32,000 bases of DNA from NCBI RefSeq assembly GCF_008000775.2, contig NZ_CP042905.2, forward strand, positions 2,970,001 through 3,002,000, written 5' to 3'. The notes below the pieces were generated by a model. It did no database searches. It was not told the DNA's origin and worked only from the letters and a program-made list of their open reading frames with translations. A program made the position numbers and the translations under genes. Below are positions 1 to 24,345 of the stretch, one piece after another. Position 1 is the first letter of the stretch. Every line of letters starts with the position of its first letter. The DNA comes from Promethearchaeum syntrophicum. Lineage in GTDB: Archaea; Asgardarchaeota; Lokiarchaeia; Sigyniarchaeales; Promethearchaeaceae.

Positions 1-1118
1 GAAATCATGATAAAAGCAATATTTCAACTAAAAGGTCATGGTTACAATTTCTTGCGGAATTAGAACTTATCATTCTATTATCTCCTAAAACCAATAATAA
101 AGAAGAATATACTATTTTTAAATTCGTCCCTTATTCAGAAAACAAGAAAAATCCTGGGATGATTCGTATCAAAGACACTTGCATATACGGGATTCCATCT
201 TATGGGGCTATGACAAAAACATATTTTCCCGATATTTATAATGCACTCCCAGATAGTTCTGATACATTTAATATCTTGATGATGCATTTTGGGATAAATG
301 GTCAAGTTATAAACAAATTAGGATTTGAAATGAGTGAAGATTTAAAATTACTGCATAAAAAAGTAAATTATCTTGCGTTAGGTCATTTCCATAAAAAATA
401 TGCACTTCCCAAGAATAAAGAGTGGGTGTTTAACCCCGGAAGTTTAGAAGTTACTGATGCCAGAGAAATCTGGGAAAATTACCCTCGAGGCATTTTCTTA
501 GTGGAAGTGCATGATAAAGAAAATCCTAATATTAGGCATATTCCTTGGGTTAAAGGTAAAAGTGAAAGTCCTGATGAAATTCCCAATCGATTCTTTGCAG
601 ATATTACAATTGATATAGGGAAAAATGATTCAAGTTCATTTAAGGAGGCACTATCATATATATTAGAAAGCTTAAAAATTATTCTGGAAAAAAAAGGAAC
701 AGCTCATTTAAAAAAAAATGATTTAGAATTACCTATTGTTTTGCTTACCTTAAATGGGACAATTTCCTATTCAAGATTGGAAGTAAACATCAATAAACTG
801 AAAGAAAGAATTAAAGAAAAATACGATGTTTTGGATGTACGTGTTTTTAGTGGATCTGTGAAGTCAGAAATTGACGGAATCGTGGTAGATATAAGTTCTG
901 AGAAATCACTTGAAGAAATTGAAAAAGATGTATTTTTACAACTCATTGAACAGCATCCAGATTATGAACCACACAAAAACGATATAATTCAATTAATGTT
1001 AGATTTAAAAAGTTCGATTCTTGATCCAAAAAAAAATTTTGACCAATTAAGAAATCAAATCAAATTATGGTGGAGATCACATATCTCACTCCCACAAGGG
1101 GAATTAAATAAGAATTAG
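1..1118 (+). CDS. mre11: Mre11 double-strand-break repair nuclease, 5'-truncated by the window edge
   Basis: The frame is open from base 3 (NHDKSNISTKRSW...), so the ORF-track ATG at 159 is internal. Calcineurin-type phosphoesterase motifs are visible: (G)NHD at the edge, ILMMHFG, and LALGHFHKKY (GHxH). The stop lies 11 nt before the rad50 ATG, with AGGAGC in between. Confidence 0.85.
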   Translation, partial: NHDKSNISTKRSWLQFLAELELIILLSPKTNNKEEYTIFKFVPYSENKKNPGMIRIKDTCIYGIPSYGAMTKTYFPDIYNALPDSSDTFNILMMHFGINGQVINKLGFEMSEDLKLLHKKVNYLALGHFHKKYALPKNKEWVFNPGSLEVTDAREIWENYPRGIFLVEVHDKENPNIRHIPWVKGKSESPDEIPNRFFADITIDIGKNDSSSFKEALSYILESLKIILEKKGTAHLKKNDLELPIVLLTLNGTISYSRLEVNINKLKERIKEKYDVLDVRVFSGSVKSEIDGIVVDISSEKSLEEIEKDVFLQLIEQHPDYEPHKNDIIQLMLDLKSSILDPKKNFDQLRNQIKLWWRSHISLPQGELNKN

Positions 1119-1129
1119 GAGCAAATTTA

Positions 1130-3832
1130 ATGATAATAACTAAAGTGCAATTAATAAACATCACCACCCATAAGAATAATTTCATAAAATTTGAAGAAGG
1201 AACTAATCTTTTAATGGGACCCAATGGCACAGGAAAATCCACCGTTCTTACAATGATTGGGTATGCACTTTTTGATATGAAACTTGGAAATAATCAAAAA
1301 TCATACGTCCGTGTCCCATCATCTAAGAATAATTTTGGTACAGTAAAAATTTGGATAAGTGGCAAAGATAAACAAGAATATTGTATTGAACGCACAATTG
1401 GGAAACCTAACAATAAAATAATTGTATCTCATTCTGATACGGGTGCAATTCTAACTAAAATTTATAATAAAGCTAATTTACGGATTTGGATTCAAGATCA
1501 GATGGGATTAAGTAAAAATTTTTCACTTTCAAGTATATTCGAACACGCCATAGGTGTGAATCAAGGAACGTTTACTGCCCCATTTTTAATGAACCCTAGT
1601 GATAGGTCCAGTATTTTTGCCCCTTTACTAAATGTACATATTTATAAAAACATTTATGATAAATACAGAGAGATTAATAATTCATTCAAAGATGAAATTC
1701 AAAATTTAGAAAAAGAGATTAGCTTTATTGAAGGAGAATTAAAGGGAAAAGATCAAATCACTCAACAACAAATAGATATTAATGAAAAACTTCGAGAATT
1801 AAGGGTTTCATCTATAAGTTCGATTACAAATTTTAACCGAATAAAGAAAAAATACGATGAATTGGTACTAATAAAGGAAAAATTAGAAAAAGTAAGAAAT
1901 GATGTCGAAAGATTGGAGTATAAGAAGAAAAATTTAGAAGATATTCTTGATAAAAATGAAGTTGAAATCAATGAAGCTAAATCAGCAAAAAATATTTGCG
2001 ATGATTATAGAAATGATTATTTAGAATACAAAGAATTACTCAAAGATGAAAGAAAATTACAAGAAAAATATACCCTACTCAATAAATATATCGGAGAAAA
2101 AAATCATTATAATAAATCTTTAATAAAACTTGAAGGGAAATTAAATCAAATTTCAAATCAGATTGACAAAATCAATAAGAAAAGCGGTTTATTACCGACT
2201 TTAGAAAAGAAATTCCTCAGAAATAAGATTATTCAAAAAAAGATTCATAATCTCGTAATTCAAATTGAATCAAAAACCATTATGCAAAAAAATTTAGAAT
2301 TATTAATTCAGGATAATGCAAAACTTAAAAGAAAAATTACAAAATTGCAAAAAACATTAAAAATATTGCCTGAAATTGAAAAAAAATGTGTTCTAATAGA
2401 AACTTCTAATCAAAAAATTAATGAACTCAATCAGAAGATAGCGGTTAAAGAAGGAGAAATTAAGAAATTAAAGCAAAATAAAAAAGACTCCAAAGGAGGG
2501 AAATGTCCCTTCTTGCTTGAAAAATGTAAAAATATTGAAGGAGATTCATTGGAAGATTATTTTCAAAAGAAAATTGATGACGAACAAGATTCAATAAAGA
2601 AATTAAAAAACAATTTAAAGGGACTTATGGAAGAACTTGAAAATTTAAAGATTGAAGAAGGCAAATTAAAACAATTGGAAAGATCTCAGATAGAATTAAA
2701 ACAGCTTGAAGATCAGAGAAAAAATAATACTGTGAAAATCAACGATTTAAAGGAAAATACAAGTAATAAAGAAAAATTAGAAATTCATAAAAATAATCTC
2801 CAAGAGGAACAAAATATTCTTGAAAATGATGTAAAACAATATAATATTATCAATGAGAATATTACTAAAGATTTACCAGAGTTAAATCAAGAAAAAGCAG
2901 AAATTGAAATAGAAATTGTGAAATCAAATAAAATTTTAGAACCTTTTGAAAACCAAATTAAAGAATTAGTAGAAGTCCCCAATCTCCTTAAGGAAGTTAG
3001 GAAAAATATGAATTCAAGACAAGATAATTTTTATGCCTATAAAGAAAATGTTAAAACTATGAAGAAATTACCAAAATTTAAAGATGAACGACTCGAGATT
3101 AAATCTAAACTCCAAAAAAACATGAAGAAGCTACAAAGTAAAGAAAAAGAGAAACTTAATTTAGATAGACAATATGATGATGAACAATTTTTGAATTTAG
3201 AACAAGATAAAGAAAAAGCTAAAAACGATTCAATTGAAATACAAGCAGATATTAAAAACCAAGAAATTTTCTTATTGGATGCAATGAAAAAATTAGAAAA
3301 CTTATCCGAAAAAGAGAAAAATCTCAATCAAAAAAACCAAGATTGGAATGAATTGAAAAAAATTAGTGATTTTAGTGAAAAAATTCGCATCTGGTTTAAA
3401 GAAGCTCAACCTAAAATAACTGAAGCTCTCATGGCTCGAATTAATAATACTGCCTCTGAATTATTCAGAAAAATTACTGGTGATGAAGCCATTCAGCTAA
3501 AATGGCAAAAAGATTATGATATTCATATCATTACTGCCCATAATCCCCTTCGAACATTTTCACAGTTATCGGGCGGTGAACAAATGAGTGCTGCATTGTC
3601 TGTCCGATTAGCAGTATTAAAAGTGCTTACAAAAATTGATTTTGCGTTTTTTGATGAACCAACGACTAATCTCGACTCAGAAAAACGGAAAAATCTCTCT
3701 AGCTGTATACAAAATATACGAGGATTCAAACAACTATTCGTAATCTCACATGACGATACATTTGAAGAAAATGCGGATTTTTCTATTCATTTCTCAAAGA
3801 ATGATTATGATGAAACTGTTGTAACATCCTAA
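1130..3832 (+). CDS. rad50: Rad50 SMC-like ATPase
   Basis: N-terminal Walker A GPNGTGKST. A very long K/E/N-rich coiled-coil middle follows. The C-terminus carries signature LSGGEQMSAALSVRLAV, Walker B FAFFDEPTTNLD and H-loop FVISHD. It sits directly downstream of mre11. The mid-coil Cys pair is CPFLLEKC rather than CxxC. Confidence 0.9.
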   Translation: MIITKVQLINITTHKNNFIKFEEGTNLLMGPNGTGKSTVLTMIGYALFDMKLGNNQKSYVRVPSSKNNFGTVKIWISGKDKQEYCIERTIGKPNNKIIVSHSDTGAILTKIYNKANLRIWIQDQMGLSKNFSLSSIFEHAIGVNQGTFTAPFLMNPSDRSSIFAPLLNVHIYKNIYDKYREINNSFKDEIQNLEKEISFIEGELKGKDQITQQQIDINEKLRELRVSSISSITNFNRIKKKYDELVLIKEKLEKVRNDVERLEYKKKNLEDILDKNEVEINEAKSAKNICDDYRNDYLEYKELLKDERKLQEKYTLLNKYIGEKNHYNKSLIKLEGKLNQISNQIDKINKKSGLLPTLEKKFLRNKIIQKKIHNLVIQIESKTIMQKNLELLIQDNAKLKRKITKLQKTLKILPEIEKKCVLIETSNQKINELNQKIAVKEGEIKKLKQNKKDSKGGKCPFLLEKCKNIEGDSLEDYFQKKIDDEQDSIKKLKNNLKGLMEELENLKIEEGKLKQLERSQIELKQLEDQRKNNTVKINDLKENTSNKEKLEIHKNNLQEEQNILENDVKQYNIINENITKDLPELNQEKAEIEIEIVKSNKILEPFENQIKELVEVPNLLKEVRKNMNSRQDNFYAYKENVKTMKKLPKFKDERLEIKSKLQKNMKKLQSKEKEKLNLDRQYDDEQFLNLEQDKEKAKNDSIEIQADIKNQEIFLLDAMKKLENLSEKEKNLNQKNQDWNELKKISDFSEKIRIWFKEAQPKITEALMARINNTASELFRKITGDEAIQLKWQKDYDIHIITAHNPLRTFSQLSGGEQMSAALSVRLAVLKVLTKIDFAFFDEPTTNLDSEKRKNLSSCIQNIRGFKQLFVISHDDTFEENADFSIHFSKNDYDETVVTS

Positions 3833-11028: not shown

Positions 11029-11463
11029 ATGCCTCGAGGGAATCGAAAAAAGGGACCTCATAGAAATAAGATTAGAAAGAGTTTCCAAAAACGCCATTTA
11101 TTGATGCAAAAATTAGCTCGAGGTAGAATTGAAGAACTTCTGGAGTTAGCTAAGAAAACCCATGCTGAAGATCCAAAATTAGCTAATAGATATGTCACTC
11201 TTGCCCGAAATATTGCGATGGGAACCAAAGTGGCGATACCAGCAATTTTAAAGAGATATATTTGCCATAATTGTAAACAATTATTAGTCCCCGGAAGAAA
11301 TATGCGTTTTCGAATTAATAATAAGGTACATTATGGTACTTATGTTTCGGTAACTTGTCTCACTTGTGGCCAAATTAGCCGTTATATAGTGAAAGGACGT
11401 GCGCGAAGAGATAAAAAGGTAAAAAATGATGACCAATCCAAGAATGCATATAATTCTAACTGA
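11029..11463 (+). CDS. rnp4: RNase P protein component 4 (Rpp21/Rpr2 family)
   Basis: Basic helical N-terminus (RIEELLELAKK...ANRYVTLARNIAM). Zinc ribbon CHNCKQLLVPGRN...VTCLTCGQ (CxxC...CxxC). Confidence 0.8.
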   Translation: MPRGNRKKGPHRNKIRKSFQKRHLLMQKLARGRIEELLELAKKTHAEDPKLANRYVTLARNIAMGTKVAIPAILKRYICHNCKQLLVPGRNMRFRINNKVHYGTYVSVTCLTCGQISRYIVKGRARRDKKVKNDDQSKNAYNSN

Positions 11464-12118
11464 AACAGCCCTAGAATTGATCCCAAAATCCCTAAAGAAG
11501 AAACCAAGTACTATGAAAAGTATTGAAAAATTTGGACGAGCGGGACAAATTCTTGATACATCACTACATCATTCAAATATGCATACATTAGAAAACTCCC
11601 AAAAGAGAGGTAGACCGGACATCCTTCATCATTTTCTACTTGACACCCTTGGGAGCCCTGCCAATATAAAGGGATTTTTAGAAATATATTTTCACTGTGC
11701 ATCAGGTTTCTATAAAGTAAATTCAGAAATGAAGTGTCCAAGAGATTACATCAGATTTAAGGGGTTAATGTTTCAATTGATCAGAAAAGGGCATATTCCT
11801 CCAAATCAACAACCTTATCTCATATCAAGAATGGATATTGATCTAAAAGATTGGATAAAAAATAATTTTAACAGGAAAAACACTTTTATATTTTCACTAA
11901 ATGGCAAAGAAGCATCTTTAGAAACGATTACTTCAAAATTCTTTAATGAAGCAAACAAATGTGCTGTGTTAATTGGTGGATTTCAAAAAAATCATTTTTC
12001 CGATGATATTCTAGAAATACCAAGTCAAATGTTTGCTTTAGCAGATAGAGGATATGATAGTTGGATTGTAACGAATCGATTATTAGCAAAATTTGAACTA
12101 GATTTGAAATTAATTTAA
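11426..12118 (+). CDS. nep1: Nep1/EMG1 SSU rRNA pseudouridine N1-methyltransferase
   Basis: HIILTETALELIP near the N-terminus and RGRPDILHHFLLDTLGSP are Nep1 hallmarks. The start is ambiguous: ATG 11426, 11429 or 11444. All three overlap the end of rnp4. Confidence 0.8.
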   Translation: MMTNPRMHIILTETALELIPKSLKKKPSTMKSIEKFGRAGQILDTSLHHSNMHTLENSQKRGRPDILHHFLLDTLGSPANIKGFLEIYFHCASGFYKVNSEMKCPRDYIRFKGLMFQLIRKGHIPPNQQPYLISRMDIDLKDWIKNNFNRKNTFIFSLNGKEASLETITSKFFNEANKCAVLIGGFQKNHFSDDILEIPSQMFALADRGYDSWIVTNRLLAKFELDLKLI

Positions 12119-13755: not shown

Positions 13756-15147
13756 ATGAATGATAAGCCCATTACAGCAATTTTAATCGGAGCCGGTTGG
13801 AGAGGTAGAGTCACTTATGGATCCTATGCATTAAAATTCCCAGATAATTTGAAATTTATAGCAGTGGCGGAACCCGATTCAAAAAAAAGAGATTTATTTC
13901 AAAAAGAACACAATATTCCAAATTCATTTGTGTTCAAATCATGGCAAGAGATTTTAGATCCATCTGTAGGAAAAATAGCTGAAACCGCTTTTATATGTAC
14001 GCAAGATCAGATGCATTACCAGCCGGCAATAAAAGCTCTTGAGTTGGAATATGATCTTTTACTAGAAAAACCTATTTCACCAAGCTTTGAGGAATGTAAT
14101 CACATCTCAAACTTAGCTCAGGAGAAAAAAAGAATCGTTCAAGTATGTCATGTACTAAGATTTACTAAATTTTTTAAAAAATTAAAAGAATTAATTGATT
14201 CTGGTGCCATTGGGGATATTATTGATTATGATCATTCAGAAAATGTCTCATATTGGCATTTTGGGCATTCTTATGTACGAGGTAGTTATAAAAAAAAAGA
14301 TGAATCTTCACCCCTAATTCTTGCAAAATGTTGTCATGATCTTGATATAATGTACTGGTTAATTGGGAAAAAACCTTTGACTGTTCAATCCAAAGGATTT
14401 TTATCTTTTTTTAGCCCAGAAAACGCACCTAAAAATGCTCCTGAAAGATGTACTGATGGATGTCCCCAAGAAGAAACTTGCCCATGGTATGCTCCCGGAC
14501 TATATTTAGAAGGAGAGCCACTTATTAGAATTGGATTACATGCAAAATCTCGTTTTTTACGATTTTTTTCATCATTAATACTTAATCACCGAAATATAAT
14601 GCTATTTTTAAGTAAATTTATAAAAAAACTTAGACCATTTTTAAATTGGGAAGAATTCCCTGCCAATTTCATTACATCTGACTTATCATATGAAGGAAAA
14701 ATGAAAGCACTTAAAGAAGGTCCTTTTGGAAAATGTATTTTTAAAACTGGCAATGATGTTGTTGACCACCAAATTGCAACTTATACGTTTCCAAATGGGG
14801 TTATCGGAACTCTAAGAATTACCGGCTTAAGTGAGTTTGAAGGCAGAGAATTAAGAATATTTGGAACAAAGGGTGTTATTCGAGCACATTTTCGAACAGT
14901 TGAAGAAGAAATAAAAATCACTGATTTTAGAACATATAAAACAAAAAGAGTCTATATAAAAGGATTATCTAAAGGAAGCCATGGCGGGGGAGATTTTAAC
15001 CTTCTGGATTCATTTATTAAAGTAATCAAGGGAGACTTAACACCAGAACAAGCAGGAACAACAAATATTCAAGGAGCTTTGCAATCACACATCATGGCTT
15101 TTGCAGGTGAGGAAGCCCGAATCAGCGGTCGAAATCACGAATTCTGA
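13756..15147 (+). CDS. Gfo/Idh/MocA-family NAD(P)-dependent oxidoreductase
   Basis: Start moved to ATG 13756 (MNDKPITAILIGAGWRGR), because the ORF-track start overlaps the previous gene. Rossmann GAGWRG and the LLLEKP motif are present. Confidence 0.7.
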   Translation: MNDKPITAILIGAGWRGRVTYGSYALKFPDNLKFIAVAEPDSKKRDLFQKEHNIPNSFVFKSWQEILDPSVGKIAETAFICTQDQMHYQPAIKALELEYDLLLEKPISPSFEECNHISNLAQEKKRIVQVCHVLRFTKFFKKLKELIDSGAIGDIIDYDHSENVSYWHFGHSYVRGSYKKKDESSPLILAKCCHDLDIMYWLIGKKPLTVQSKGFLSFFSPENAPKNAPERCTDGCPQEETCPWYAPGLYLEGEPLIRIGLHAKSRFLRFFSSLILNHRNIMLFLSKFIKKLRPFLNWEEFPANFITSDLSYEGKMKALKEGPFGKCIFKTGNDVVDHQIATYTFPNGVIGTLRITGLSEFEGRELRIFGTKGVIRAHFRTVEEEIKITDFRTYKTKRVYIKGLSKGSHGGGDFNLLDSFIKVIKGDLTPEQAGTTNIQGALQSHIMAFAGEEARISGRNHEF

Positions 15148-15155
15148 GAAATTAC

Positions 15156-17408
15156 TTATTGAAAATACCATGAAATTTCTTGGATCTTTTCTTCAATTTT
15201 TTCCCTTTCGATATCTGATAATATATTCGATTGAGGAGTTTGTATGTTAGAAGCAATTATTCTTCCAAACTTATCTTTCCAAATTAGATCTCCAGTTATT
15301 TTTTTTCTACTAAAAAATTTCTTAGAGAATTTGAGAAATGAATCTTTCAGAAAAATGAATAATAATTTAGAAGCATTTTGATAAGGTCCTAAATCTTCTC
15401 TTCCAATTATTTTAAAAAAATCTTGATCTACTTGATTCTTTTCAAATAATGATTTGAATATTTTCTGTATTAAATCTATTCGAAATTCTGCTATATTTTT
15501 ACTATTTAGAACACTTTTTAGAATTAAAGATAAAATATCTTTTTCATTGGAAGAAAATTTTTTGAATAATCCTTCAATAGTTCGTTTTTCTGCTTCGTAT
15601 ATATTTCTACAATAATCACGTGTAGAGACATTCAATCTTTTGGTACTTTTACCCAATTTAATTTGATAATCTGAATACATTTTTTCGGATAATCCCATTT
15701 TACCCATAATCGCCAGTTTTTCTAAATTACTTTTTAAGACATAGCTACCATAGATAAATTTCATTGAGTCACATTTCTTAATTGCAATATCAATTTCTCC
15801 TGAAGATATATAACCATATTTTGTAAAATCTGAGATTATCTGCCATGGGAGCACATTGGAAATTATTGGAACGCCTTTTTTAATTAAGAAAACAACTTGA
15901 TCGGGAGTTAAAATAGTTTTTGGTTGAGCTTTTTTTGTCCAATTCGGTTTATCAATTAATTTTGGATTACATAGAGTATAATCAAAAGGTTGGATAAATG
16001 AAATAATGGGGGAAGTTGGATCTATAATAATTCTTGCACCATCAGTAAATGATTGAAGGAATTCTTCGTGTAATTTATTAACATTAACATCCCATTGAAT
16101 AATTATTGAATTTTTTGAAAGACCAAAATTAGGTTGCCTCTTTCTTTGATGCTCAATCCAATTAGGAATAATTTCATCCCCTTTAAGCCAATTAAAAAAT
16201 TTCCGGTGTAAATTTATTTCTTCATTCATAATATATTCTCTATTACTGGTTTTAATATGTTGAATTACATAATTTAAGGTAGGATATCTCTCCAATAAAG
16301 TTGTAGATATAAATGAGAAATCTCTCTGGTTGTAATAGCTTGAATATCCTTCTTTAACAAAATAAATTGGTCTTTCTCCAGCAGATTTCATAATATAGAT
16401 TAGAAAGTCATCTGCCATATCGTAAGCAGGAAGGAAATATGCTTTCGTGTTAGTTTTAGAGGAAATCCACTTTTTTATATATATAATTGATGTCCCTGAA
16501 ATCTCCAATTTATCATAAATTAGATAGTATCTCTTCTTTAATAATTGAGGAGATATATTCCAAGATTTGTTCAAATTTGTTAAATTTTCCTGATTCCCAT
16601 TAAAAAGCAACTCTAGAGTTATTTTTGCATCACAAATTTCCTCATTCGAGATGTTTTTCGGCTTTTTAAAACTTTCAAAATGAAAAATATAATTTAGTTT
16701 GTTTGCGATTTTATTCAAAATATAAGCATTCTCAAGCTTATTAATCATCCCTAAGTTCCAGAAATTTTGAATAAAAATCTCTAAAATATCATGGAATTTC
16801 TGATAAAAAAAATCAAACATTGCCTCAATGAATAACTTTTCTTCTTCTTTAGAATCTTTTAAGAGTTCAAAATATGAATCAATTTTATATAAAATTAGAT
16901 CTGAACTTAATATATTTAAATCATCTTCTAAGGATTTTACGAGAGTTTTTACTTGTGTGGTATATGATTCTTTTTTTAAAAGATATCTACATAATATCTT
17001 TATTCTCTCATTAAAAGGAATTTCTATTTTATTGATTTTATCGCCAACTTGAACGAGTGAAATTTCCTTAATTTTTTCAAGATAGGATGAGAGATTGGAT
17101 GTTTTAATTAATTTCAATTGTGATTTTTGATTTGATATATTTTTTACTTGTTCATCAGATAGCATTAGAAGTAATTTTCCCAAATGCTTACACCAATCAA
17201 AAGACCGGTTAAGAAAATCAGGACAATAATGTGCCACATATTTTTCCTGCAAGTTAATAATGGCAGTGTAAGGATTTTGCGCACTCCCTTGGATAATACA
17301 ATATGTAATCAAAGGAATTTCTTGAATAATTGCAAATTCAAGTACATTCTTATCAGAAATCGACCTAGCTCTAGATAACCGTGAAGATGAAACTAAATTT
17401 TGTATCAT
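15156..17408 (-). CDS. SWIM-type zinc-finger protein, 750 aa, third gene of the MoxR-vWA operon
   Basis: N-terminus RLSRARSISDKNVLEF...CIIQGSAQNPYTAIINL...AHYCPDFLNRSFDWCKHLGKLLL has SWIM-like ligands H60-x-C62...C73-x-H75. The remaining ~670 aa match no family I recognise. The start lies 4 nt after the vWA gene stop. Confidence 0.6.
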   Translation of the reverse strand: MIQNLVSSSRLSRARSISDKNVLEFAIIQEIPLITYCIIQGSAQNPYTAIINLQEKYVAHYCPDFLNRSFDWCKHLGKLLLMLSDEQVKNISNQKSQLKLIKTSNLSSYLEKIKEISLVQVGDKINKIEIPFNERIKILCRYLLKKESYTTQVKTLVKSLEDDLNILSSDLILYKIDSYFELLKDSKEEEKLFIEAMFDFFYQKFHDILEIFIQNFWNLGMINKLENAYILNKIANKLNYIFHFESFKKPKNISNEEICDAKITLELLFNGNQENLTNLNKSWNISPQLLKKRYYLIYDKLEISGTSIIYIKKWISSKTNTKAYFLPAYDMADDFLIYIMKSAGERPIYFVKEGYSSYYNQRDFSFISTTLLERYPTLNYVIQHIKTSNREYIMNEEINLHRKFFNWLKGDEIIPNWIEHQRKRQPNFGLSKNSIIIQWDVNVNKLHEEFLQSFTDGARIIIDPTSPIISFIQPFDYTLCNPKLIDKPNWTKKAQPKTILTPDQVVFLIKKGVPIISNVLPWQIISDFTKYGYISSGEIDIAIKKCDSMKFIYGSYVLKSNLEKLAIMGKMGLSEKMYSDYQIKLGKSTKRLNVSTRDYCRNIYEAEKRTIEGLFKKFSSNEKDILSLILKSVLNSKNIAEFRIDLIQKIFKSLFEKNQVDQDFFKIIGREDLGPYQNASKLLFIFLKDSFLKFSKKFFSRKKITGDLIWKDKFGRIIASNIQTPQSNILSDIEREKIEEKIQEISWYFQ

Positions 17409-17412
17409 ATTA

Positions 17413-19989
17413 CTAAACCCTCGATATAATATTACTTACAATTTTAGGAAAGTTTTTCCAATTATCAACAGGAATTAATTGAGCATTTATAGATTCGACT
17501 ATTTGCTGAATATTACCCATTCCATACATAGTTTTAGGGACAATTAAGATGCTTGTAGCATTTTCATTCACGATATTTTCTAAATGTTTTTTTGATCTTT
17601 GAAAATCTCCTAAATAGGCATCTGTAACTAATATAAACATTTTATCTTGACTTTTTGATAGTTTAAATTGATTTTCGGCCCATTCAACAGCAGATTGCAT
17701 TTGAGTTCCACCACGAGCGTGTAAATCGAGTATTTCATCAACAATTTCATCCAAAACAATATCTTCATTAATTTCACATAAAATATGAGAAGAACTTTCA
17801 AACAAAGCAACCCCCAATTCATCCCTCGCAAAAACCATTAAAAGCATAACAGTTACAATGGAAGCACTAGCCAATGGAGCTCCAGTCATTGAACCACTGA
17901 TATCTAAAAGAAAAATAACACATCTTCTTCCAGAAATCTCTTCTCTTACAATAAAATCATCCAATTTTACATCTTCGATTTTTTTTCCAGAACTTAGCAA
18001 GTTATCTATAGTTTCATCTATATCTATAGCCCAAGGATCATCACCAAGAAAAAATGGTCGAGTTGTGCCTTCTGGCAAGATTCCAGCTTCAGAAGATCCG
18101 ATTAGAAGAGCTGCTTTTGTCTTAGCTAAATCAATAATAATTTCCTTGGCGCGATCTTTAACAGTTTGTCTAAGCCATTTTGGTAATTTATGTCCATGTT
18201 TAAACCATTGATTGAGAAAATTCTCCCCTCCTCCAGCGCCAATAGCTTTTCTAAAAAGATCTTCCTCTTCGGGAGTATGGCGAATGATTTTTGATACTTG
18301 ACTTAAATCCCGCATTGCTAAAGCGCCCAATGCACCTACACTCTTTTTTTTAATAGACATACTGATTAAGGTTTGTGATTGGGATTGAGTTAACGAATTT
18401 TTTCTTAGTATACTGTTTACACGTTCAAAACTGGGATTCTCAGTAGAAATCATATTTTTAAGATATTCAAATACGTCTCCAAGTAATTTAGCAATTTCTG
18501 CTTTATCCATTCCTAAACTATCCCCTTTCTCAAAAATTTTTGATATTTCAAGATCATAATTGTTTTCTTGCGCAAATTCAATAGATTTTGCTAAATCATC
18601 TGGAGTTTGAGAAGTTTCGATCATATTTTTTATTTCTTCTTGGTTAAAATTTCTAAAAGTTTGATTTAAATGAGAATTTCCAACTTTCTTCTTAATATTT
18701 TCTAATTTTTCAAATAGGTCATTGTGATCACCCCAATTTAAATTCTTATCAGCTAAATAATTTGAAACTTTATTTCTGAATAAATCAAGCCATTCAGCAT
18801 TTGATATTGGGTTGTCAATTACTTCATTCAAAGGTGTTTTTTTAAAATCTTTAGAATATTTATTATAAATTCGATTGGAGAGATTTGAATTGAAAATATC
18901 ATCTAAATCTTTAGCTTTCTGCAATAAATCAAGTGGAGAATTATATTCATGAGAGTTTTCAATAAATGAATCTAATTGATCATAATTTAACGTATCTTTA
19001 AATAAATTAGGAGAAAAAAGAATATCTTCTAAATTTGTTGCCTCTTCTTTAAATCTATTTTCAGCATAATTTATCATACTATCCAAACGTGGGGCATGAT
19101 CTGATATCGAGATATTATTTTGGTTTAAAATATTTTTGAAATTATTAAAAATTTCTAAAGAATTTTGTAATTCTCTTGATGATAATTCATCTATTATTTT
19201 GGAAGATTTAGAAGATATCTCATGTTTATGATTTTTTAAAGAGTCTTCTAACATTTCTGCTAAATTTTGAATATTTTTTTCACGGCTCAAGTTCTTTACT
19301 TCAGATGTTAACGAAAGAATGTGACTTCTAACAAGGTCCTCATTATCTATAAAGGGGACTTTTTGAAGCATCAGCTTTTTTGCAAAATCCATTATTCCAC
19401 CCCAATTATCAAGTTTATTTTGTCTAAGACCTTGACTACCACCAATTGTATCATAAGCAATTCGTTTCTTTAAAATGTCTAAACTTTCATTGTTTGTGAG
19501 TGAGATATAATCTTGAGGATCAGATGCAAAAATTTCATTTTCTATTTGCTCTACAAAACGAAGGCTTTCCAACCCTTTACTTGAATCTACAGACCTTTGC
19601 AATGTTAGAAAACTTAAAATCTCATTTAAAATATCTTGTGCGCCAGTTAAATGTTTAGGAACAGTTTTAGAAGTAATCAAACTTGAATCTACAGTATCTC
19701 CTTGAAATAAATCCCTTTCATCACCGAGAAGGATTCTTATCGCAATAATTTCTGCAAATTTTTGAGCTTCTGGAGGGCTTGTGATGATTGCAAGTGTGAT
19801 TAAATCATTAGTATCTAGTGAAGATTTTGTGCGCAAGATCTTACATATTCCCATAGCGCATATAGCTTGGGATTGCCTTGAACTAAAAATACTTTTTTTT
19901 ATACCTGGAGATTCATTTATGCTTTCTCTAGCGACATTTATAAATTCAGATGCAAATTCAACTAATTCAAAGTGTCCCATTAAAATCAC
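17413..19989 (-). CDS. 858-aa protein: ~680-aa helical region plus C-terminal von Willebrand factor A domain
   Basis: The C-terminal vWA has a complete MIDAS: VIFLLDISGSMTG (DxSxS, D696 at 17902-17904), ARGGTQM (Thr) and ILVTDAY (Asp). The preceding PFFLGDDPWAIDIDETIDNLL...DDFIVREE resembles CoxE/YehP-type vWA leaders. The N-terminal ~680 aa are helical and N/K/E/L-rich, and I recognised no family. Confidence 0.75.
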   Translation of the reverse strand: MILMGHFELVEFASEFINVARESINESPGIKKSIFSSRQSQAICAMGICKILRTKSSLDTNDLITLAIITSPPEAQKFAEIIAIRILLGDERDLFQGDTVDSSLITSKTVPKHLTGAQDILNEILSFLTLQRSVDSSKGLESLRFVEQIENEIFASDPQDYISLTNNESLDILKKRIAYDTIGGSQGLRQNKLDNWGGIMDFAKKLMLQKVPFIDNEDLVRSHILSLTSEVKNLSREKNIQNLAEMLEDSLKNHKHEISSKSSKIIDELSSRELQNSLEIFNNFKNILNQNNISISDHAPRLDSMINYAENRFKEEATNLEDILFSPNLFKDTLNYDQLDSFIENSHEYNSPLDLLQKAKDLDDIFNSNLSNRIYNKYSKDFKKTPLNEVIDNPISNAEWLDLFRNKVSNYLADKNLNWGDHNDLFEKLENIKKKVGNSHLNQTFRNFNQEEIKNMIETSQTPDDLAKSIEFAQENNYDLEISKIFEKGDSLGMDKAEIAKLLGDVFEYLKNMISTENPSFERVNSILRKNSLTQSQSQTLISMSIKKKSVGALGALAMRDLSQVSKIIRHTPEEEDLFRKAIGAGGGENFLNQWFKHGHKLPKWLRQTVKDRAKEIIIDLAKTKAALLIGSSEAGILPEGTTRPFFLGDDPWAIDIDETIDNLLSSGKKIEDVKLDDFIVREEISGRRCVIFLLDISGSMTGAPLASASIVTVMLLMVFARDELGVALFESSSHILCEINEDIVLDEIVDEILDLHARGGTQMQSAVEWAENQFKLSKSQDKMFILVTDAYLGDFQRSKKHLENIVNENATSILIVPKTMYGMGNIQQIVESINAQLIPVDNWKNFPKIVSNIISRV

Positions 19990-20001
19990 ATTCGTAATTT
20001 A

Positions 20002-20973
20002 TTATTTTACAACTGTATTGATGATTTTCTTAACAATTTGTTCAGATTGGAATCCGGGTCGTGGTTTTAACCCTCCAATCAGCACAAGACCCGCAATTTT
20101 CTTAAATTCATTTATATCTAATTTCTTTTTAAGTTGTTTTTTTGCAGCTAGTTTTGTAATTGCTATAGCAGAACGAATTGAAGCAGGTCTTTCAATTTCT
20201 CGGCTCTTTCGTGTAGCATCGATTAAATTGTAGGTGAGATCTATATAATCTTTTGATAATTTAGTTTGAGGAATATTTGCATGAATAATTTCCATTTCAA
20301 CTGAACGTGAAGGATAATCTAATTTAATCCAAATTTTTATTCGATCTTTAAGAGCTTCTGATAAACGATGAGTTCCCGCCATATCTCCTGGATTAGCAGC
20401 ACACATTAAAAAAAAATCATCATGAGCTCTAATCCTACCTAATCGTGGTAACATAATACTTCGTTCTTCTAGAGGTTCCAAAAATGTATTTTGGGTGTAT
20501 TCTGTAGCGCGGTTTAATTCGTTTGCCAGAAATATTCCACCTGTTACCATCATTTCTGTCAAAGAACCTGGTAAAAATGATTCTTTAATGAAACCTCTTT
20601 TTAATGTTTCTCCAGGATCAAAAGCACCTACAAAATGACCAGGTTTTGTCGATTCATCTAATGTCATCCATTCAAAATTCTTCTTACGTGAAGAAGCAAA
20701 GGATCTTGCAAGAAGTGTTTTACCAGTTCCAGGAGGACCAATTAAAATTGGTGTTAATTGACATGCTTCAGCATCTTCTAATAATTCAAATGCTTGTTTA
20801 TACTGCCCTTTTTTTACTAATTCAATATCTGGTGTGTTGTCAAAAACAAAGGATTTCTCCATCAATTCGTAAAAATCACTTTTTTTTACTTTTTGATTTT
20901 CTTTACTAATTTTACTTGTAGTTTTCTTACTAATTTTCTTTGTAACTTTACTTTTTGTTTTTTTTGGAGGCAT
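20002..20973 (-). CDS. MoxR-like AAA+ ATPase with lysine-rich N-terminal tail
   Basis: Walker A LIGPPGTGKT. The Walker B region GGIFLANELNRATEYTQNTFLEPLEERS corresponds to the MoxR hhhDEINRA...LLEAMEE pattern but has Asn where the Asp is expected. CAANPGDMAGTHRLSEALKDRI is the MoxR sensor/Arg region. N-terminus MPPKKTKSKVTKKISKKTTSKISK. The stop lies 12 nt before the vWA gene start. Confidence 0.8.
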   Translation of the reverse strand: MPPKKTKSKVTKKISKKTTSKISKENQKVKKSDFYELMEKSFVFDNTPDIELVKKGQYKQAFELLEDAEACQLTPILIGPPGTGKTLLARSFASSRKKNFEWMTLDESTKPGHFVGAFDPGETLKRGFIKESFLPGSLTEMMVTGGIFLANELNRATEYTQNTFLEPLEERSIMLPRLGRIRAHDDFFLMCAANPGDMAGTHRLSEALKDRIKIWIKLDYPSRSVEMEIIHANIPQTKLSKDYIDLTYNLIDATRKSREIERPASIRSAIAITKLAAKKQLKKKLDINEFKKIAGLVLIGGLKPRPGFQSEQIVKKIINTVVK

Positions 20974-21232
20974 ATTTTGTCACTTATTAATATTTTTACC
21001 TTATATAAATTTAAACATATAGGGAATCCGATTTTCTAAAAATTATTTGGCTCCTATTAATGTTTTTTTGTAAATGGATGATTCTCAAAAATAATTCTGA
21101 ACTTTAAAAATTTGTTTTACGGAAGATCTTCAGAGATTTATAAATTAATGTTTGGATTTTTTTTTGAATAGCCTTGCTAACTATTGGATTCAATATATTT
21201 TAATATATCATTGATAGATATTTCTTTTATGA

Positions 21233-22827: not shown

Positions 22828-24345
22828 CTATTTTTTCTCTGCGTGTAAGTGATTCAGCTCATTAAAAGGAAAATTGAATTTCTTGAACGTTTCAGCAAAA
22901 TTAGAATAATTCTCGATGGATTTTTTTATTTCATTATATCCTCTAAATGAAGATAAATAGGAAGTAATTTCTTCGCCATGTATTATATCTGGGAGAAGAA
23001 ATTCTGAATGTATTGAAAATTTCTCTTCCCTTTCTTCTTTCGTACTTGGTACAACTATTGGAGAATTTTCTATATCTAAGTTGATTCTTTGAAATCCATT
23101 TTCTGATGCTCTGATTCCATAAATAAAATTATATTTTAGTTTAATATTGGGAAAATGTTCATTGAATTGATTCCATAATACATCCAAGCACCCATAACAA
23201 GGATTCTTCTCAGATAGAATAAATAATTCACCTCTTATTTCTGTTTTATCATTATGTTCTAAAAGTCCTAATTGATGTACAAAATTATTTAGAATTTTAA
23301 ATTCACTATGTTGACTATTAGTTTTTTTGTAATTTATTTTATCATCTTTGGGATGTAAAACTGTTTTGGGTATAAAAAATGGGGTTAATTCCTTTTCAAA
23401 ATGGATCGAAGATAACTCTGGGATATTTTTTTCGTCCATCGATTTTATGACTTTTTCAGGAACATTTCCTTTTTTATCTGTTTCAATATATTTTTCTGTT
23501 AGTTCTAGTTGAAATCTTGAATTGGAACTTTCAACATTCTTTCCATCAAAAATAACCATCGGACCTTTATCATTAAAAGAAATGATATATCCTTCTATCT
23601 CTTCTTGGTTGCCAATTTTGATTTTGTATATACCAAAGGCAAGATGTAATGTACTCCCTCTCATTCCCGTTTGTTTATTCCTCATTTGAGGAATTGTTTG
23701 TTTCCAATTCAGTACATTAACTTTATTAGATTTACTTCGATACAATTTTATTTCTTCATTCTTAATTTTATTGATGACTTGATATCCTTGATACCTAGAA
23801 ATGCTAGAACTAATTGATATATTTTCTATATTGAAAAAATCCTTTAGTTGGCCATCTTTATGAACGAGATCTTTGGGCATCGGTTTTGGATCATAAATAT
23901 GGATAATACATTTCGAGTTGAAATAGTTTGTCAAGTCTTTCGTATTATAATTCGTAGCTTTGCCTGTATAAAAGCAGCCAATTAACTTCAGCGAAACTCG
24001 GTCGTAAATATCAATTTTAATCATGGTACCAGGAGCTAAGTTAAATCTTTTGCGGCGTTGTTGTGCATTGAAGAACCTAAATAGATTATCCGGAAACTTT
24101 TTCCTCGCATTTTTCCGAATTTCACGAACCGTCTTTCTTGTGATTTGGATACATTTTTTTGGCTCAATCCCAGGAAATTTCGTGAAGTAGAATCCTTCGT
24201 TAAAAGAATATACTTCTGCTTTTTGACATGCGGATTTACTTAAATATTTGAAAAATTGTTCTTTTTCATCAATTAAGGGATTTCTTAGCAGAGCTATTCT
24301 GTTTTTATCGTGAATTTTTACCCAAGATTCTTCAAAGTTTGTCAT
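22828..24345 (-). CDS. orphan 505-aa protein with a C-terminal-half nucleotide/nucleic-acid deaminase-like signature
   Basis: H346-S-E348 (codon H346 at 23308-23310), then a helix-like FKILNNFVHQLG, then a strand-like GELFILSEKN, then P382-C-Y-G-C386 (C386 at 23188-23190). This gives HxE-x33-PCxxC with the expected secondary-structure context. The N-terminal ~330 aa match no family I recognise. Confidence 0.5.
   Translation of the reverse strand: MTNFEESWVKIHDKNRIALLRNPLIDEKEQFFKYLSKSACQKAEVYSFNEGFYFTKFPGIEPKKCIQITRKTVREIRKNARKKFPDNLFRFFNAQQRRKRFNLAPGTMIKIDIYDRVSLKLIGCFYTGKATNYNTKDLTNYFNSKCIIHIYDPKPMPKDLVHKDGQLKDFFNIENISISSSISRYQGYQVINKIKNEEIKLYRSKSNKVNVLNWKQTIPQMRNKQTGMRGSTLHLAFGIYKIKIGNQEEIEGYIISFNDKGPMVIFDGKNVESSNSRFQLELTEKYIETDKKGNVPEKVIKSMDEKNIPELSSIHFEKELTPFFIPKTVLHPKDDKINYKKTNSQHSEFKILNNFVHQLGLLEHNDKTEIRGELFILSEKNPCYGCLDVLWNQFNEHFPNIKLKYNFIYGIRASENGFQRINLDIENSPIVVPSTKEEREEKFSIHSEFLLPDIIHGEEITSYLSSFRGYNEIKKSIENYSNFAETFKKFNFPFNELNHLHAEKK

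Follow-up and report, generated by a model that had tools for sequence, protein, structure and literature searches.

A candidate three-subunit MoxR-vWA remodelling machine encoded by the archaeon Promethearchaeum syntrophicum

A compact operon of Promethearchaeum syntrophicum MK-D1 encodes a MoxR-class AAA+ ATPase, a helical protein that ends in a vWA domain and a large SWIM-solenoid protein. We consider it a little better than an even bet, with a probability of roughly 55%, that this locus specifies an undescribed archaeal three-subunit MoxR-vWA remodelling machine in which the SWIM/solenoid protein would be the specificity subunit. A literature search for an archaeal operon of MoxR, vWA and SWIM genes returned nothing, in agreement with the original prediction, which had called the operon uncharacterised.

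Operon layout and inheritance

Within the window, the 32,000-nucleotide stretch of DNA that was analysed and to which all positions refer, three genes follow each other on the minus strand, on which all features given below are also located: gene 1 (20002..20973), encoding a 323-aa MoxR-class AAA+ ATPase (AAA_5), gene 2 (17413..19989), encoding a helical protein of 858 aa with a vWA/MIDAS domain at the C-terminus, and gene 3 (15156..17408; DSAG12_03206), encoding a 750-aa SWIM-solenoid protein. Gene 2 starts with a GTG; the NCBI annotation begins at an ATG 9 nt downstream and has 855 aa. Only 12 nt separate genes 1 and 2 and 4 nt genes 2 and 3, and the locus is bracketed by a convergent plus-strand gene that stops at 15147 and a divergent one that begins at 21233, so that coordinates, gaps and neighbours all confirm the compact self-contained three-gene operon that had been predicted. 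Tight or overlapping junctions as in MK-D1 recur at five other loci (L001-L004 and L012). Reading of the sequence revealed a TATA-like element, TTTATATAA (21001..21009), as candidate archaeal promoter of the operon; its centre precedes the start codon of gene 1 (ATG) by about 32 nt, implying a very short leader, and within the operon such a box is found upstream of gene 1 alone. By its layout the locus is one self-contained operon, predicted to be co-transcribed, and the genes are probably translationally coupled. That the three ORFs are genuine genes and did not arise by chance follows from homologues with E values of 0 to 1e-118 and from the synteny of the triad at other loci.

How stable is this association? 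The order of genes 1, 2 and 3 is found in 13 of 13 sufficiently long Asgard loci from Loki-, Thor- and Heimdallarchaeota, the flanks of which are unrelated, and also in distant archaeal triads (L023, L025 and L026, partially in L024); the synteny in related genomes on which the prediction depended thus exists. Moreover, the distance matrices of the three proteins correlate with r=0.81-0.95 (Mantel p<=0.0002), indicating co-evolution. Judged from sequence comparison, the three genes are inherited as a unit, their order being conserved from these Asgard phyla to more distant archaea. Identity across Asgard falls from gene 1 (67-75%) through gene 2 (38-51%) to gene 3 (31-37%), as expected for a motor, an adaptor and a specificity subunit. 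Gene 3 had been called an obligatory third partner, which holds inside the triad clade but not beyond it, where related two-gene systems (L030-L034 and L037) lack gene 3 and have a gene 2 protein of 478-685 aa that keeps the N-terminal motif and residues 561-858. In a compact triad (L025) both gene 2 and gene 3 are shortened. A pattern scan of 185,579 species genomes yielded 9 loci, the system comprises about 20-25 full-length clusters at 50% identity, and one copy (L022) has decayed; the patchy distribution and the decayed copy imply that the system is dispensable. No conserved client gene adjoins the operon in the loci examined.

The ATPase and its vWA partner

Gene 1 is indeed the MoxR-type AAA+ ATPase with lysine-rich N-terminal tail that had been foreseen. 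It matches Pfam AAA_5 (2.5e-19, 70 bits) and AAA_3 (8.5e-14, 52 bits) and marginally passes the cut-off for bpMoxR (27.9 versus 27 bits). Its best NCBIfam match is GvpN with 74 bits at a family cut-off of 267, and its best single-domain PDB match is MoxR 2r44 (34 bits), with the solved NorQ (24 bits) and CbbQ (23 bits) among the nearest single-domain structures. The low-complexity tail (20878..20973, aa 1-32) is rich in Lys, Ser and Thr, 13 of its 32 residues being lysines; the tail preceding the KGQY motif measures 41-81 aa in Asgard triads and about 26-29 aa in two-gene relatives with a clear start. Walker A (GPPGTGKT; 20716..20739, aa 79-86) is invariant. The Walker B motif (IFLANE; 20518..20535, aa 147-152) is non-canonical in that Asn151-Glu152 replaces Asp-Glu, and the ATPase kinetics may be atypical because of this exchange of Asp for Asn. 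Nearly all relatives examined have A-[N/Q/H]-E at this position, one outlier (L036) has A-D-W, and none has the canonical D-E.

The vWA domain of gene 2 (17440..18030, aa 654-850) is CoxE-like. Pfam VWA_2 (4e-09) and VWA (9.5e-06) match over residues 691-850, VWA_CoxE reaches 2.7e-05 (24.1 bits, slightly below its cut-off of 26.4), and the cobaltochelatase subunit model TIGR02442 (4.3e-5) and CobT_C match weakly. The MIDAS motif DxSxS (17890..17904) reads D696-I-S-G-S700 and is completed by T762 and D790; D696, S698, S700, T762 and D790 are invariant in every orthologue and distant subfamily, so that the C-terminal vWA domain with complete MIDAS was correctly predicted. Residues 1-650, which had been described as unassignable, are covered by no Pfam, NCBIfam or PADLOC family. 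Ahead of the vWA domain two segments are conserved. The pre-vWA segment (18031..18252, aa 580-653; GAGGGEN..WF..LP.W.R...K..AK...IGSS.AG.LPEG..RP), for which we infer a possible contact with the ATPase ring, has 56-70% identity per window, and the N-terminal motif (19717..19953, aa 13-91; ...SSRQSxAI...DLVxLAVITSPP) is kept even by the short two-gene forms. In hhalign the gene 2 N-terminus matches residues 247-294 of gene 1 weakly (E=0.02, probability 2%), a hint that the motif may resemble the AAA+ lid/sensor-2 helices of gene 1. The central helical region (18310..19692, aa 100-560) is variable; it is occupied by 458-623 residues in full triads, by 267 in the compact triad and by 59-304 in two-gene systems, from which it is mostly missing. 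AF2 models it as mostly helical (pLDDT 60-87 for residues 270-580), the model of the whole protein being unusable at pLDDT 48. As two-gene relatives lack both this region and gene 3, and the compact triad has a shortened form of either protein, the pattern suggests that residues 100-560 may be a docking platform for gene 3.

What could such an ATPase and vWA pair act upon? To our knowledge, every characterised AAA_5/CoxE-like vWA pair activates or matures specific enzymes. Enzyme activation and maturation by these pairs have been summarised (PMC3893208). Accordingly one might picture the triad as a chaperone dedicated to the maturation of metallocentres or enzymes, of the CoxD-CoxE-CoxF, NorQ-NorD, CbbQ-CbbO or CobS-CobT-CobN type, with gene 3 as CobN/BchH-like binder of substrate or cofactor, and the CoxE-like vWA domain with its weak TIGR02442 and CobT_C matches, the ranking of GvpN before NorQ and CbbQ among the named matches of gene 1 and a chelatase-like three-subunit stoichiometry are in line with this idea. 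We nevertheless hold it to be unlikely, as gene 3 has no homology to CobN/BchH, an XdhC/CoxF-like partner is absent, no client enzyme or cofactor pathway is a conserved neighbour, the flanks differing per locus, and the known chelatase and maturation partners contain neither a SWIM finger nor HEAT arrays. Like CbbQ-CbbO and NorQ-NorD of the CGN subfamily, in which GvpN also belongs with CbbQ and NorQ, the triad has a small AAA_5 gene directly upstream of that for a 600-860-aa C-terminal-vWA protein with intact MIDAS, but its scores lie far under the family cut-offs, no Rubisco or NOR client is nearby and its Walker B has N-E instead of D-E. A conserved SWIM/solenoid third subunit is foreign to CbbQ-CbbO and NorQ-NorD, as had been claimed for the characterised MoxR systems. 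The chelatases CobS-CobT-CobN and BchI-BchD-BchH likewise consist of AAA+ motor, vWA/MIDAS adaptor and large substrate-binding subunit, and the gene 2 N-terminus may hold an AAA+-lid-like remnant faintly reminiscent of the degenerate AAA+ module of BchD; however, the triad has no tetrapyrrole context. Midasin/Rea1 also joins AAA_5-type modules by a long helical linker to a MIDAS domain at its C-terminus, an arrangement that the triad divides between two genes. When PDB entries are ranked by whole-sequence score, Midasin comes first for the gene 1 profile, albeit its 94 bits add up from eight weak matches (-0.6 to 17.2 bits each) along the six-module AAA ring, every one below the 34 bits of MoxR 2r44, and a specific relationship was rejected; the gene 2 profile did not match the Midasin MIDAS domain at E<=1.

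Gene 3 and the bacterial Yeh-type cluster

Gene 3 itself belongs to no Pfam, NCBIfam or PADLOC family. Its N-terminal module of helix, beta-sheet and SWIM finger (17124..17408, aa 1-95) is modelled by AF2 with strands at residues 22-30, 33-39, 47-52 and 57-61 and a helix at 74-81 (pLDDT about 69-90). The putative zinc ligands H60, C62, C73 and H75 (HYCPDF...WCKH; 17184..17231) are invariant, H60-x-C62-P-D-F...C73-K-H75 and the upstream RLSRAR...IQGS..PY being unchanged in 7-14 orthologues of about 33% identity, and the HxC...CxH pattern recurs in 106 of 109 relatives of the module. The module aligns with the N-termini of YehQ-type proteins (hhalign 83%, E=8.9e-6) and with a Hymenobacter SWIM-DUF5691 protein (hmmsearch E=3.8e-5), and a close gene 3 relative (P0040) clears the Pfam SWIM threshold. 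The predicted SWIM module is thereby supported, albeit as a variant finger whose first ligand is His and not Cys. In two orthologues the SWIM loop contains a G/Y-rich insert. About 70 small stand-alone proteins have a similar N-terminal module.

The remainder of gene 3 consists of a fast-evolving, solenoid-like first helical arm (16380..17090, aa 107-343; AF2 helices at pLDDT about 75-90, 13-33% identity per window), a conserved central domain (15669..16421, aa 330-580; DDLLIYI..AGERP, EYIT..H..FF.WL, IIQWDVN, QPFD.TLC, LPW) and a C-terminal helical arm (15159..15668, aa 581-750; pLDDT about 72-90). For the first arm Foldseek returned generic alpha-solenoids only, at E of at least 0.04. The central domain, with 37-47% identity, matches no family, is modelled with low AF2 confidence and is the sole part common to compact distant relatives (HMM positions 315-639); in it, or in the poorly modelled gene 2, an enzymatic fold may be hidden. 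In Heimdall-labelled lineages the C-terminal arm is lengthened by 600-950 aa of HEAT repeats (HEAT_2 at 1e-31 to 1e-57 in P0012-14 and P0017), and the HEAT-fused gene 3 remains within the triad.

Does the triad belong to the bacterial Yeh-type cluster (E. coli yehL-yehM-yehP-yehQ with yehI; the Deinococcus operon ddrTUVWX is probably of this type)? The original prediction suggested that it might be an archaeal three-gene yehLMPQ and gene 2 a fusion of DUF5682 (YehM) and vWA. The component classes agree, as both have an ATPase of the AAA_5 class, a vWA protein of CoxE type and a large protein with SWIM at its N-terminus. Yeh-type clusters are as uncharacterised in the literature as the triad, and some of them comprise three genes, the vWA protein being a fusion; a Streptomyces plasmid (L009) carries a natural DUF5682-VWA_CoxE protein in such a layout. 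Together with the SWIM homology at module level, and with HEAT extensions of gene 3 that could parallel the large helical DUF4132/DUF5691 partners, this might indicate a true, very divergent orthologue with a YehQ-like gene 3, which we regard as highly improbable. Bacterial proteins reach 331-676 bits with Pfam DUF5682, which hits none of 5 archaeal gene 2 orthologues at E<=10, hhalign of gene 2 with DUF5682 gives 0.2-0.4% probability, and the invariant GxRHH...E...RE...GGWH has no counterpart in gene 2. The fusion has its precedent in Streptomyces but is not supported here, and the profile searches recovered the SWIM module of gene 3 but no relation between the gene 2 N-terminus and DUF5682. 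With the archaeal HMMs, YehL-type ATPases obtain 17-33 bits and the unrelated MoxR 2r44 obtains 34; the scores do not exceed 12.5 bits for YehP-type vWA and 3 bits for YehQ-type proteins, whereas distant archaeal triads reach 80-437 bits. Neither the ATPase nor the vWA lies nearer to YehL and YehP than to generic MoxR and vWA proteins. Furthermore, none of the archaeal proteins gives a hit to DUF4132 or DUF5691, the genes stand in another order, the SWIM finger has His as its first ligand, and the module is, given the stand-alone proteins, not Yeh-specific. Demonstrable homology is limited to the SWIM module, the resemblance otherwise being architectural and not one of membership.

Defence context, mechanism and client

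MoxR-vWA cores are employed by bacterial conflict systems, as the original prediction had stated, and their ternary forms, described as VMAP, iSTAND, FtsH and beta-propeller types with SWIM unmentioned, resemble the triad in that a third protein with helical stretches is conserved beside the core, the genes keep a strict order and all three components evolve congruently (Kaur et al., 2020; PMC7159879). The SWIM/HEAT parts of gene 3 could by this analogy sense an invader and the MoxR-vWA pair license an effector in an NTP-dependent defence system. The marginal bpMoxR match, the patchy distribution with one decayed copy, occasional restriction, methyltransferase or toxin-antitoxin neighbours (N6_N4_Mtase at L003 and L004, Eco57I at L025, PIN at L012) and a toxin-deaminase gene at 1.9 kb distance inside the window would fit such a role. 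Against this, PADLOC gave generic P-loop matches only and no significant system-level match for the three proteins, the third component belongs to none of these types, and a search of viral contigs gave no relatives. The vWA domain is C-terminal and carries no fused effector domain, and Pfam, NCBIfam and PADLOC detect none in genes 1-3, just as no effector motif had been visible before. In addition, the triad is archaeal, its flanks are mostly metabolic and transport genes that vary by locus, and the strong conservation of the ATPase across phyla is accompanied by no paralogous diversification in the loci examined. A defence function is therefore left unsupported by PADLOC, viral contigs and neighbourhood, and we rate its chances as slim.

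How would the proposed remodelling machine work? By analogy with CbbQ-CbbO, NorQ-NorD, RavA-ViaA and CobS-CobT-CobN, gene 1 would form a hexameric ring to which gene 2 would bind via its conserved N-terminal and pre-vWA segments, and the MIDAS ion of gene 2 would grip an acidic residue of the client. Gene 3 would dock onto the central helical region of gene 2 and, as specificity subunit, use the SWIM module and the surfaces of its solenoid to recognise the client; in some lineages the HEAT repeats may enlarge these surfaces. ATP hydrolysis would then lead to remodelling, maturation or disassembly of the client. Circumstantial pointers to the nature of this client are the SWIM module, the Lys-rich tail of gene 1 in Asgard triads, the G/Y-rich insert in the SWIM loop and the radiation induction of the Deinococcus ddrTUVWX operon (SWIM...CoxE-like VWA; PMC5552922), an architectural analogue without demonstrable homology. 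On these grounds we lean weakly, and at clearly less than even odds, towards a nucleic-acid-associated complex as the client that the machine would act upon.

A conserved three-gene operon

The operon consists of three ORFs on the minus strand, coding for a MoxR ATPase of 323 aa (gene 1, 20002-20973), a helical protein of 858 aa that ends in a vWA domain (gene 2, 17413-19989) and a SWIM protein of 750 aa (gene 3, 15156-17408; 100% identical to DSAG12_03206 of P. syntrophicum MK-D1). The gaps between them measure 12 nt (gene 1/gene 2) and 4 nt (gene 2/gene 3). Strand, lengths and gaps in the original prediction were reproduced to the exact coordinate, as was the bracketing by convergent and divergent neighbours, a GFO/IDH/MocA oxidoreductase gene ending at 15147 and an ABC-transporter gene starting at 21233. 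A TATA-like TTTATATAA, read from the sequence, is found some 32 nt upstream of the ATG of gene 1 and is a plausible candidate for the archaeal TATA box of the operon. The start of gene 2 (19980-19989, minus strand) is ambiguous: a GTG at 19989 yields 858 aa and the ATG annotated by NCBI 9 nt downstream yields 855 aa, and the first residues are not conserved in orthologue alignments.

The genes around the operon are mostly metabolic or housekeeping (MBL-rhodanese, oxidoreductase, ABC and MFS transporters, EMG1/NEP1, DJ-1, acetyl-CoA hydrolase), the exceptions being a toxin-deaminase-domain protein 1.9 kb off and an SMC/Rad50-like ATPase 11 kb off. At its C-terminus the former (22828-24345, minus strand, 505 aa) matches the polymorphic-toxin deaminase family BURPS668_1122 above the cut-off (PF14424, E=6.8e-8), and an HSE...PCxxC motif can be seen; PADLOC had no hit for it. 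The latter (1130-3832, plus strand, 900 aa, AAA_23) scores 81.7 bits for LmuB and 73 bits for mad3 in PADLOC and is preceded by a 319-aa ORF with no Pfam hit (159-1118, plus strand); the pair could be a Rad50-Mre11-like or a Lamassu-like element. Some 3 kb separate the operon from the EMG1/NEP1 pseudouridine-N1 methyltransferase homologue (11426-12118, plus strand, 140 bits), which is a factor of ribosome biogenesis and shows no sign of linkage to the operon.

How widely is this arrangement kept? An exhaustive search with a gene 3 profile over 1.84 billion representative proteins (threshold E<=1e-3) returned 122 clusters, some 20-25 of them full-length and the rest mostly small proteins that match the SWIM module alone. 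The synteny expected in related genomes was borne out, as gene 1, gene 2 and gene 3 follow each other in this order in all 13 Asgard loci long enough to be judged (Loki, Thor, Heimdall and Harpocratesius lineages); the three genes abut closely or overlap there, and the flanks are unrelated. Identity to the window proteins drops from the motor to the scaffold (67-75% for gene 1, 38-51% for gene 2, 31-37% for gene 3). Distant triads occur in MAGs labelled Methanosarcinales and Methanobacteriota; gene 3 measures about 785 aa in the distant triads L023 and L026, and in the compact triads L024 and L025 gene 2 is reduced to about 640 aa and gene 3 to about 625 aa. Correlations between the three proteins' pairwise distance matrices are r=0.81-0.95 (Mantel p<=0.0002), and the triad is inherited as one unit with a patchy distribution. 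One decayed copy was seen in the Promethearchaeota isolate PPR_0005 (L022, 5676-8954), where gene 2 begins at residue 134, only residues 19-236 of gene 3 are left and gene 1 was not detected in a locus free of N runs. Gene 3 is followed on its strand by a tandem pair of alpha/beta-hydrolase genes in both L023 (10426-12174) and L026 (9736-11460); this may be an accessory module or the shared synteny of close relatives.

The three proteins

Gene 1 matches Pfam AAA_5 with 70.1 bits (cut-off 22) and AAA_3 with 52 bits (cut-off 27), in agreement with its earlier assignment as a MoxR-type AAA+ ATPase; its top NCBIfam match, GvpN with 74 bits, stays far under the GvpN cut-off. The family alignment keeps GPPGTGKT, AANPGD, KDRIK and ASIRS without change, and we take these, by the MoxR consensus, to be Walker A, sensor 1, Arg finger and sensor 2. 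The Walker B motif is LANEL (20518-20535, minus strand), in which Asn151 replaces the canonical Asp of hhhhDE and the catalytic Glu is kept. The relatives among the compared loci (L001-L038) carry A-[N/Q/H]-E and none carries D-E; a single outlier, L036, has A-D-W and has lost the catalytic Glu. The lysine-rich N-terminal tail noticed earlier is indeed rich in Lys, Ser and Thr and is 41-81 aa long in Asgard triads as compared to about 26-29 aa in relatives with a clear start that consist of genes 1 and 2 only. Kinship with Midasin/Rea1 was considered and rejected, as its 94 bits, the top score among PDB sequences, add up from eight matches that individually reach -0.6 to 17.2 bits; as a single domain, Cytophaga MoxR 2r44 matches best (34 bits), with NorQ and CbbQ next. 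Since the Midasin score adds up weak matches and 2r44 is the best single-domain match, gene 1 is, judged from its sequence, a divergent MoxR-class ATPase without specific Midasin affinity. A gene 2 profile likewise gave no hit to Midasin at E<=1.

In gene 2, family matches are confined to residues 654-850 (VWA_2 37.5 bits, cut-off 27; VWA 26.4 bits, cut-off 23.8). For VWA_CoxE (PF05762) the window protein reaches 24.1 bits, just under the cut-off of 26.4, and all of five orthologues match (best E=5.3e-08); for comparison, bacterial YehP scores 243 bits. The MIDAS, the metal site of the vWA domain, is complete as predicted, and D696, S698, S700, T762 and D790 (DxSxS...T...D) are invariant across all subfamilies. 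The helical N-terminal part, which the original prediction could not assign, has resisted assignment here as well, residues 1-650 finding no match in Pfam, NCBIfam, PADLOC or PDB sequences. Identity is 46-52% over residues 1-100 and 53-71% over residues 550-858 and lowest in the centre (20-44%). A weak likeness of the N-terminal motif to an AAA+ lid (E=0.02) may be taken as a hint. The AF2 model of gene 2, built from three sequences (pLDDT 48, vWA not folded), is too poor for use. A homologue search had the window protein and one 78% relative among the matches listed, and orthologues were collected from the loci.

The converse metagenome search, with the conserved ATPase in place of gene 3 as query, found gene 2 always present beside gene 1, and the pair, in the window only 12 nt apart, is kept at every sufficiently long locus. 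L030-L034, a subfamily of about 50% identity, and L037 were classed as two-gene systems, since the ORFs that come next are found on the other strand. The third partner, originally thought to be obligatory, is present in every judgeable Asgard triad locus, but the wider family includes systems that do without it. The two-gene versions of gene 2 are 478-685 aa long and retain the N-terminal motif, the pre-vWA segment and the vWA domain with its MIDAS. To gene 2 region 100-560 they align only 59-304 residues, whereas full triads align 458-623 and a compact triad 267. Since these numbers differ between triads and two-gene systems, presence and size of the central region track gene 3, from which we infer that gene 3 docks on this helical region. 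Some two-gene relatives have an ORF of about 85 aa immediately upstream of their ATPase gene (L030/L031, 7538-7867; L034, 546-950), for which the case for a histone fold is weak, its sole PDB sequence matches, CBFD_NFYB_HMF proteins, being very weak (E ~0.7).

Gene 3 begins with a module (residues 1-95) that AF2 models with good confidence as helix, four-stranded sheet and helix. Its signature HxCxnCxH (H60-x-C62...C73-x-H75) differs from the SWIM signature CxCxnCxH in that the first Cys is replaced by His, which is a competent zinc ligand. The four putative ligands are invariant across orthologues of about 33% identity. Of the SWIM-like finger proposed earlier, the homology to SWIM proteins stood and conformity with the Pfam family did not: for PF04434 (cut-off 19.6 bits) the window protein had no hit and one of seven orthologues matched at E=0.0034, but the relative P0040 (E=2e-28 to the gene 3 profile) reaches the gathering score with 21.9 bits, and a profile of 109 module sequences aligns with the N-termini of YehQ-type proteins over 80 columns, the ligands falling in register (hhalign 83%, E=8.9e-6). 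Because 106 of the 109 module relatives carry the HxC...CxH form, the module belongs, by sequence, to a distinct His-variant SWIM subfamily. In L003 (8001-10325) and L017 (8001-10295) the SWIM loop that separates the ligand pairs HxC and CxH holds a Gly/Tyr-rich low-complexity insert of 17-24 residues, e.g. GGGERNYGGYGRGYGGYGGYGSGGSTDGG.

The remainder of gene 3 has helical arms on both sides of a conserved central domain (330-580), which is poorly modelled; the first arm (aa 107-343) evolves fast, and the second is C-terminal. A Foldseek search of the gene 3 model against the PDB found generic alpha-solenoids alone (best E=0.04, TM ~0.1), and neither the gene 2 nor the gene 3 profile had a match among PDB sequences. 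HEAT repeats lengthen gene 3 by 600-950 aa in Heimdallarchaeota-labelled lineages, with the triad context retained. The N-terminal 650 residues of gene 2 and the 650 post-SWIM residues of gene 3 fall, by these comparisons, outside every described family.

Relation to the Yeh-type cluster and other MoxR-vWA systems

Is the triad an archaeal version of the bacterial yehLMPQ cluster (YehL ATPase, YehM DUF5682, YehP vWA, YehQ SWIM), with gene 2 as fusion of DUF5682 and vWA components, as originally proposed? The comparison set comprised E. coli yehL-M-P-Q and six diverse bacterial loci, in which the layout (DUF4132)-AAA-DUF5682-VWA_CoxE-SWIM, with or without DUF5691, recurs. The imagined architecture is real in bacteria, since a Streptomyces sp. 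NBC_00984 plasmid has a true DUF5682-VWA_CoxE fusion of 1257 aa (L009, 6947-10720; 676 and 217 bits), and this locus is a three-gene form of the Yeh-type cluster because an AAA ATPase gene and the gene of a 625-aa protein without Pfam family stand on either side of the fusion. None of the methods used supports such a fusion in gene 2. Pfam DUF5682 was absent from five archaeal orthologues at E<=10 and from L023 and L024 at E<=1, with bacterial positive controls at 331 and 676 bits, hhalign gave 0.2-0.4% probability with profiles of 5 and 10 sequences, and hmmsearch gave 0 bits or less. As an observation on the DUF5682 proteins themselves (L005-L011), their invariant N-terminal residues G8-x-R10-H11-H12, E35, R175-E176 and G199..H202 (YehM numbering) look like a catalytic or metal-binding constellation and presumably resemble TraB/TIKI-type motifs.

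The other components score similarly low. The gene 1 HMM gave 17-33 bits on seven YehL-type ATPases, not above the 34 bits for the unrelated MoxR 2r44, which by HMM scores alone would place gene 1 outside the YehL subfamily. The archaeal HMMs reached at most 12.5 bits on YehP-type vWA proteins and, with full-length gene 3, at most 3 bits on YehQ-type, SWIM and DUF5691 proteins, as compared to 80-437 bits on distant archaeal triads. Full-length gene 3 aligned weakly with YehQ-type proteins in hhalign (E=0.008) and only over residues 5-88, that is the SWIM module; Pfam DUF4132 and DUF5691 had no hits among the archaeal proteins, and BLASTP of genes 1-3 against YehL/M/P/Q found generic AAA+ (2e-08) and vWA (3e-05) matches only. 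The SWIM module, which also occurs in many stand-alone proteins, is the sole part common to both, and homology of the triad as a whole with yehLMPQ is not supported: on sequence criteria the relation is one of architectural analogy, with no demonstrable membership. As to the analogue, the five-gene operon ddrTUVWX of Deinococcus deserti, which begins with a SWIM zinc-finger gene and ends with a CoxE-like VWA gene, has a promoter with the RDRM motif and ranks with the loci most strongly induced by radiation in an IrrE/DdrO-dependent manner (PMC5552922), and DUF4132 genes are DdrO- or LexA-linked (bioRxiv 10.1101/2021.07.07.451423). A Rhizobium etli locus has the five-gene layout SWIM-DUF5691-AAA-DUF5682-VWA, and ddrTUVWX, which matches it by composition, is probably a Yeh-type cluster.

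Four MoxR-vWA ternary conflict systems have been described, with VMAP, iSTAND, FtsH or beta-propeller components, in which the vWA proteins bear variable C-terminal effectors; SWIM is unmentioned (Kaur et al., 2020; PMC7159879). In contrast, gene 3 has none of the four in Pfam, and gene 2 ends in the vWA domain itself with no fused effector, leaving as sole link a marginal bpMoxR hit of gene 1 (27.9 versus 27 bits). That the triad acts in defence, one of the options originally listed, is likewise not supported and looks unlikely: PADLOC on the operon and ten neighbouring window proteins was negative except for the generic SMC/LmuB-like ATPase 11 kb away, scans of viral contigs found no relatives of the triad, and the neighbours are mostly metabolic or housekeeping genes. 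From the chelatase I/D/H and CobS/T/N systems the triad differs in that gene 3 has no CobN/BchH family hit in Pfam or NCBIfam.

Proposed mechanism and meaning

For a triad of this composition, operon structure, conservation and co-evolution a mechanism can be modelled on CbbQ-CbbO, NorQ-NorD, RavA-ViaA and CobS-CobT-CobN (family overview: PMC3893208). By analogy, gene 1 would form a hexamer and gene 2 would bind to this ring via its conserved N-terminal and pre-vWA segments, with its MIDAS gripping an acidic residue of the client. Gene 3 would be the specificity subunit, docked on the central region of gene 2, and the triad would remodel its client driven by ATP. The SWIM finger, the basic ATPase tail, the Gly/Tyr-rich SWIM-loop insert of two orthologues and the DNA-damage link of the analogue make us lean weakly towards a client associated with nucleic acids, a tentative and rather doubtful assignment. 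A far bolder proposal, to which we give very little credence, is that the triad constitutes a fifth, archaeal class of three-component MoxR-vWA machines, centred on Asgard archaea, whose SWIM/HEAT solenoid targets a nucleoprotein or large protein assembly as a split prokaryotic counterpart of the eukaryotic Midasin/Rea1 principle, which combines an AAA_5 ring and a long helical linker with a terminal MIDAS that pulls assembly factors off a complex. If true, this would be a new ATP-driven way of remodelling complexes, in those archaea that are most closely related to eukaryotes.

The locus is a previously uncharacterised, archaeal, co-evolving MoxR-vWA-SWIM triad whose kinds of components are already known; in the literature no functional study was found of yehLMPQ, DUF5682, DUF4132, MoxR+vWA+SWIM combinations, Asgard MoxR or the DSAG12 loci. 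Few AAA+ systems are as widespread and as little understood as MoxR-vWA pairs, of which only a handful have a known client, and MoxR-vWA operons with unknown partners are common. Alone, the triad settles no long-standing question, and there is so far no pointer to a surprising function. Treating the Yeh-type cluster as analogue with no demonstrable homology keeps a mis-annotation from spreading. The triad also yields testable predictions, namely that the centre of gene 2 docks gene 3, that the MIDAS is the client grip and that the SWIM/HEAT surfaces are the specificity element. It adds to the MoxR-vWA family a version that is clearly delimited, has three co-evolving subunits and holds about 1,400 residues outside described families; this version occurs in the one culturable Asgard archaeon and in Loki-, Thor- and Heimdallarchaeota.
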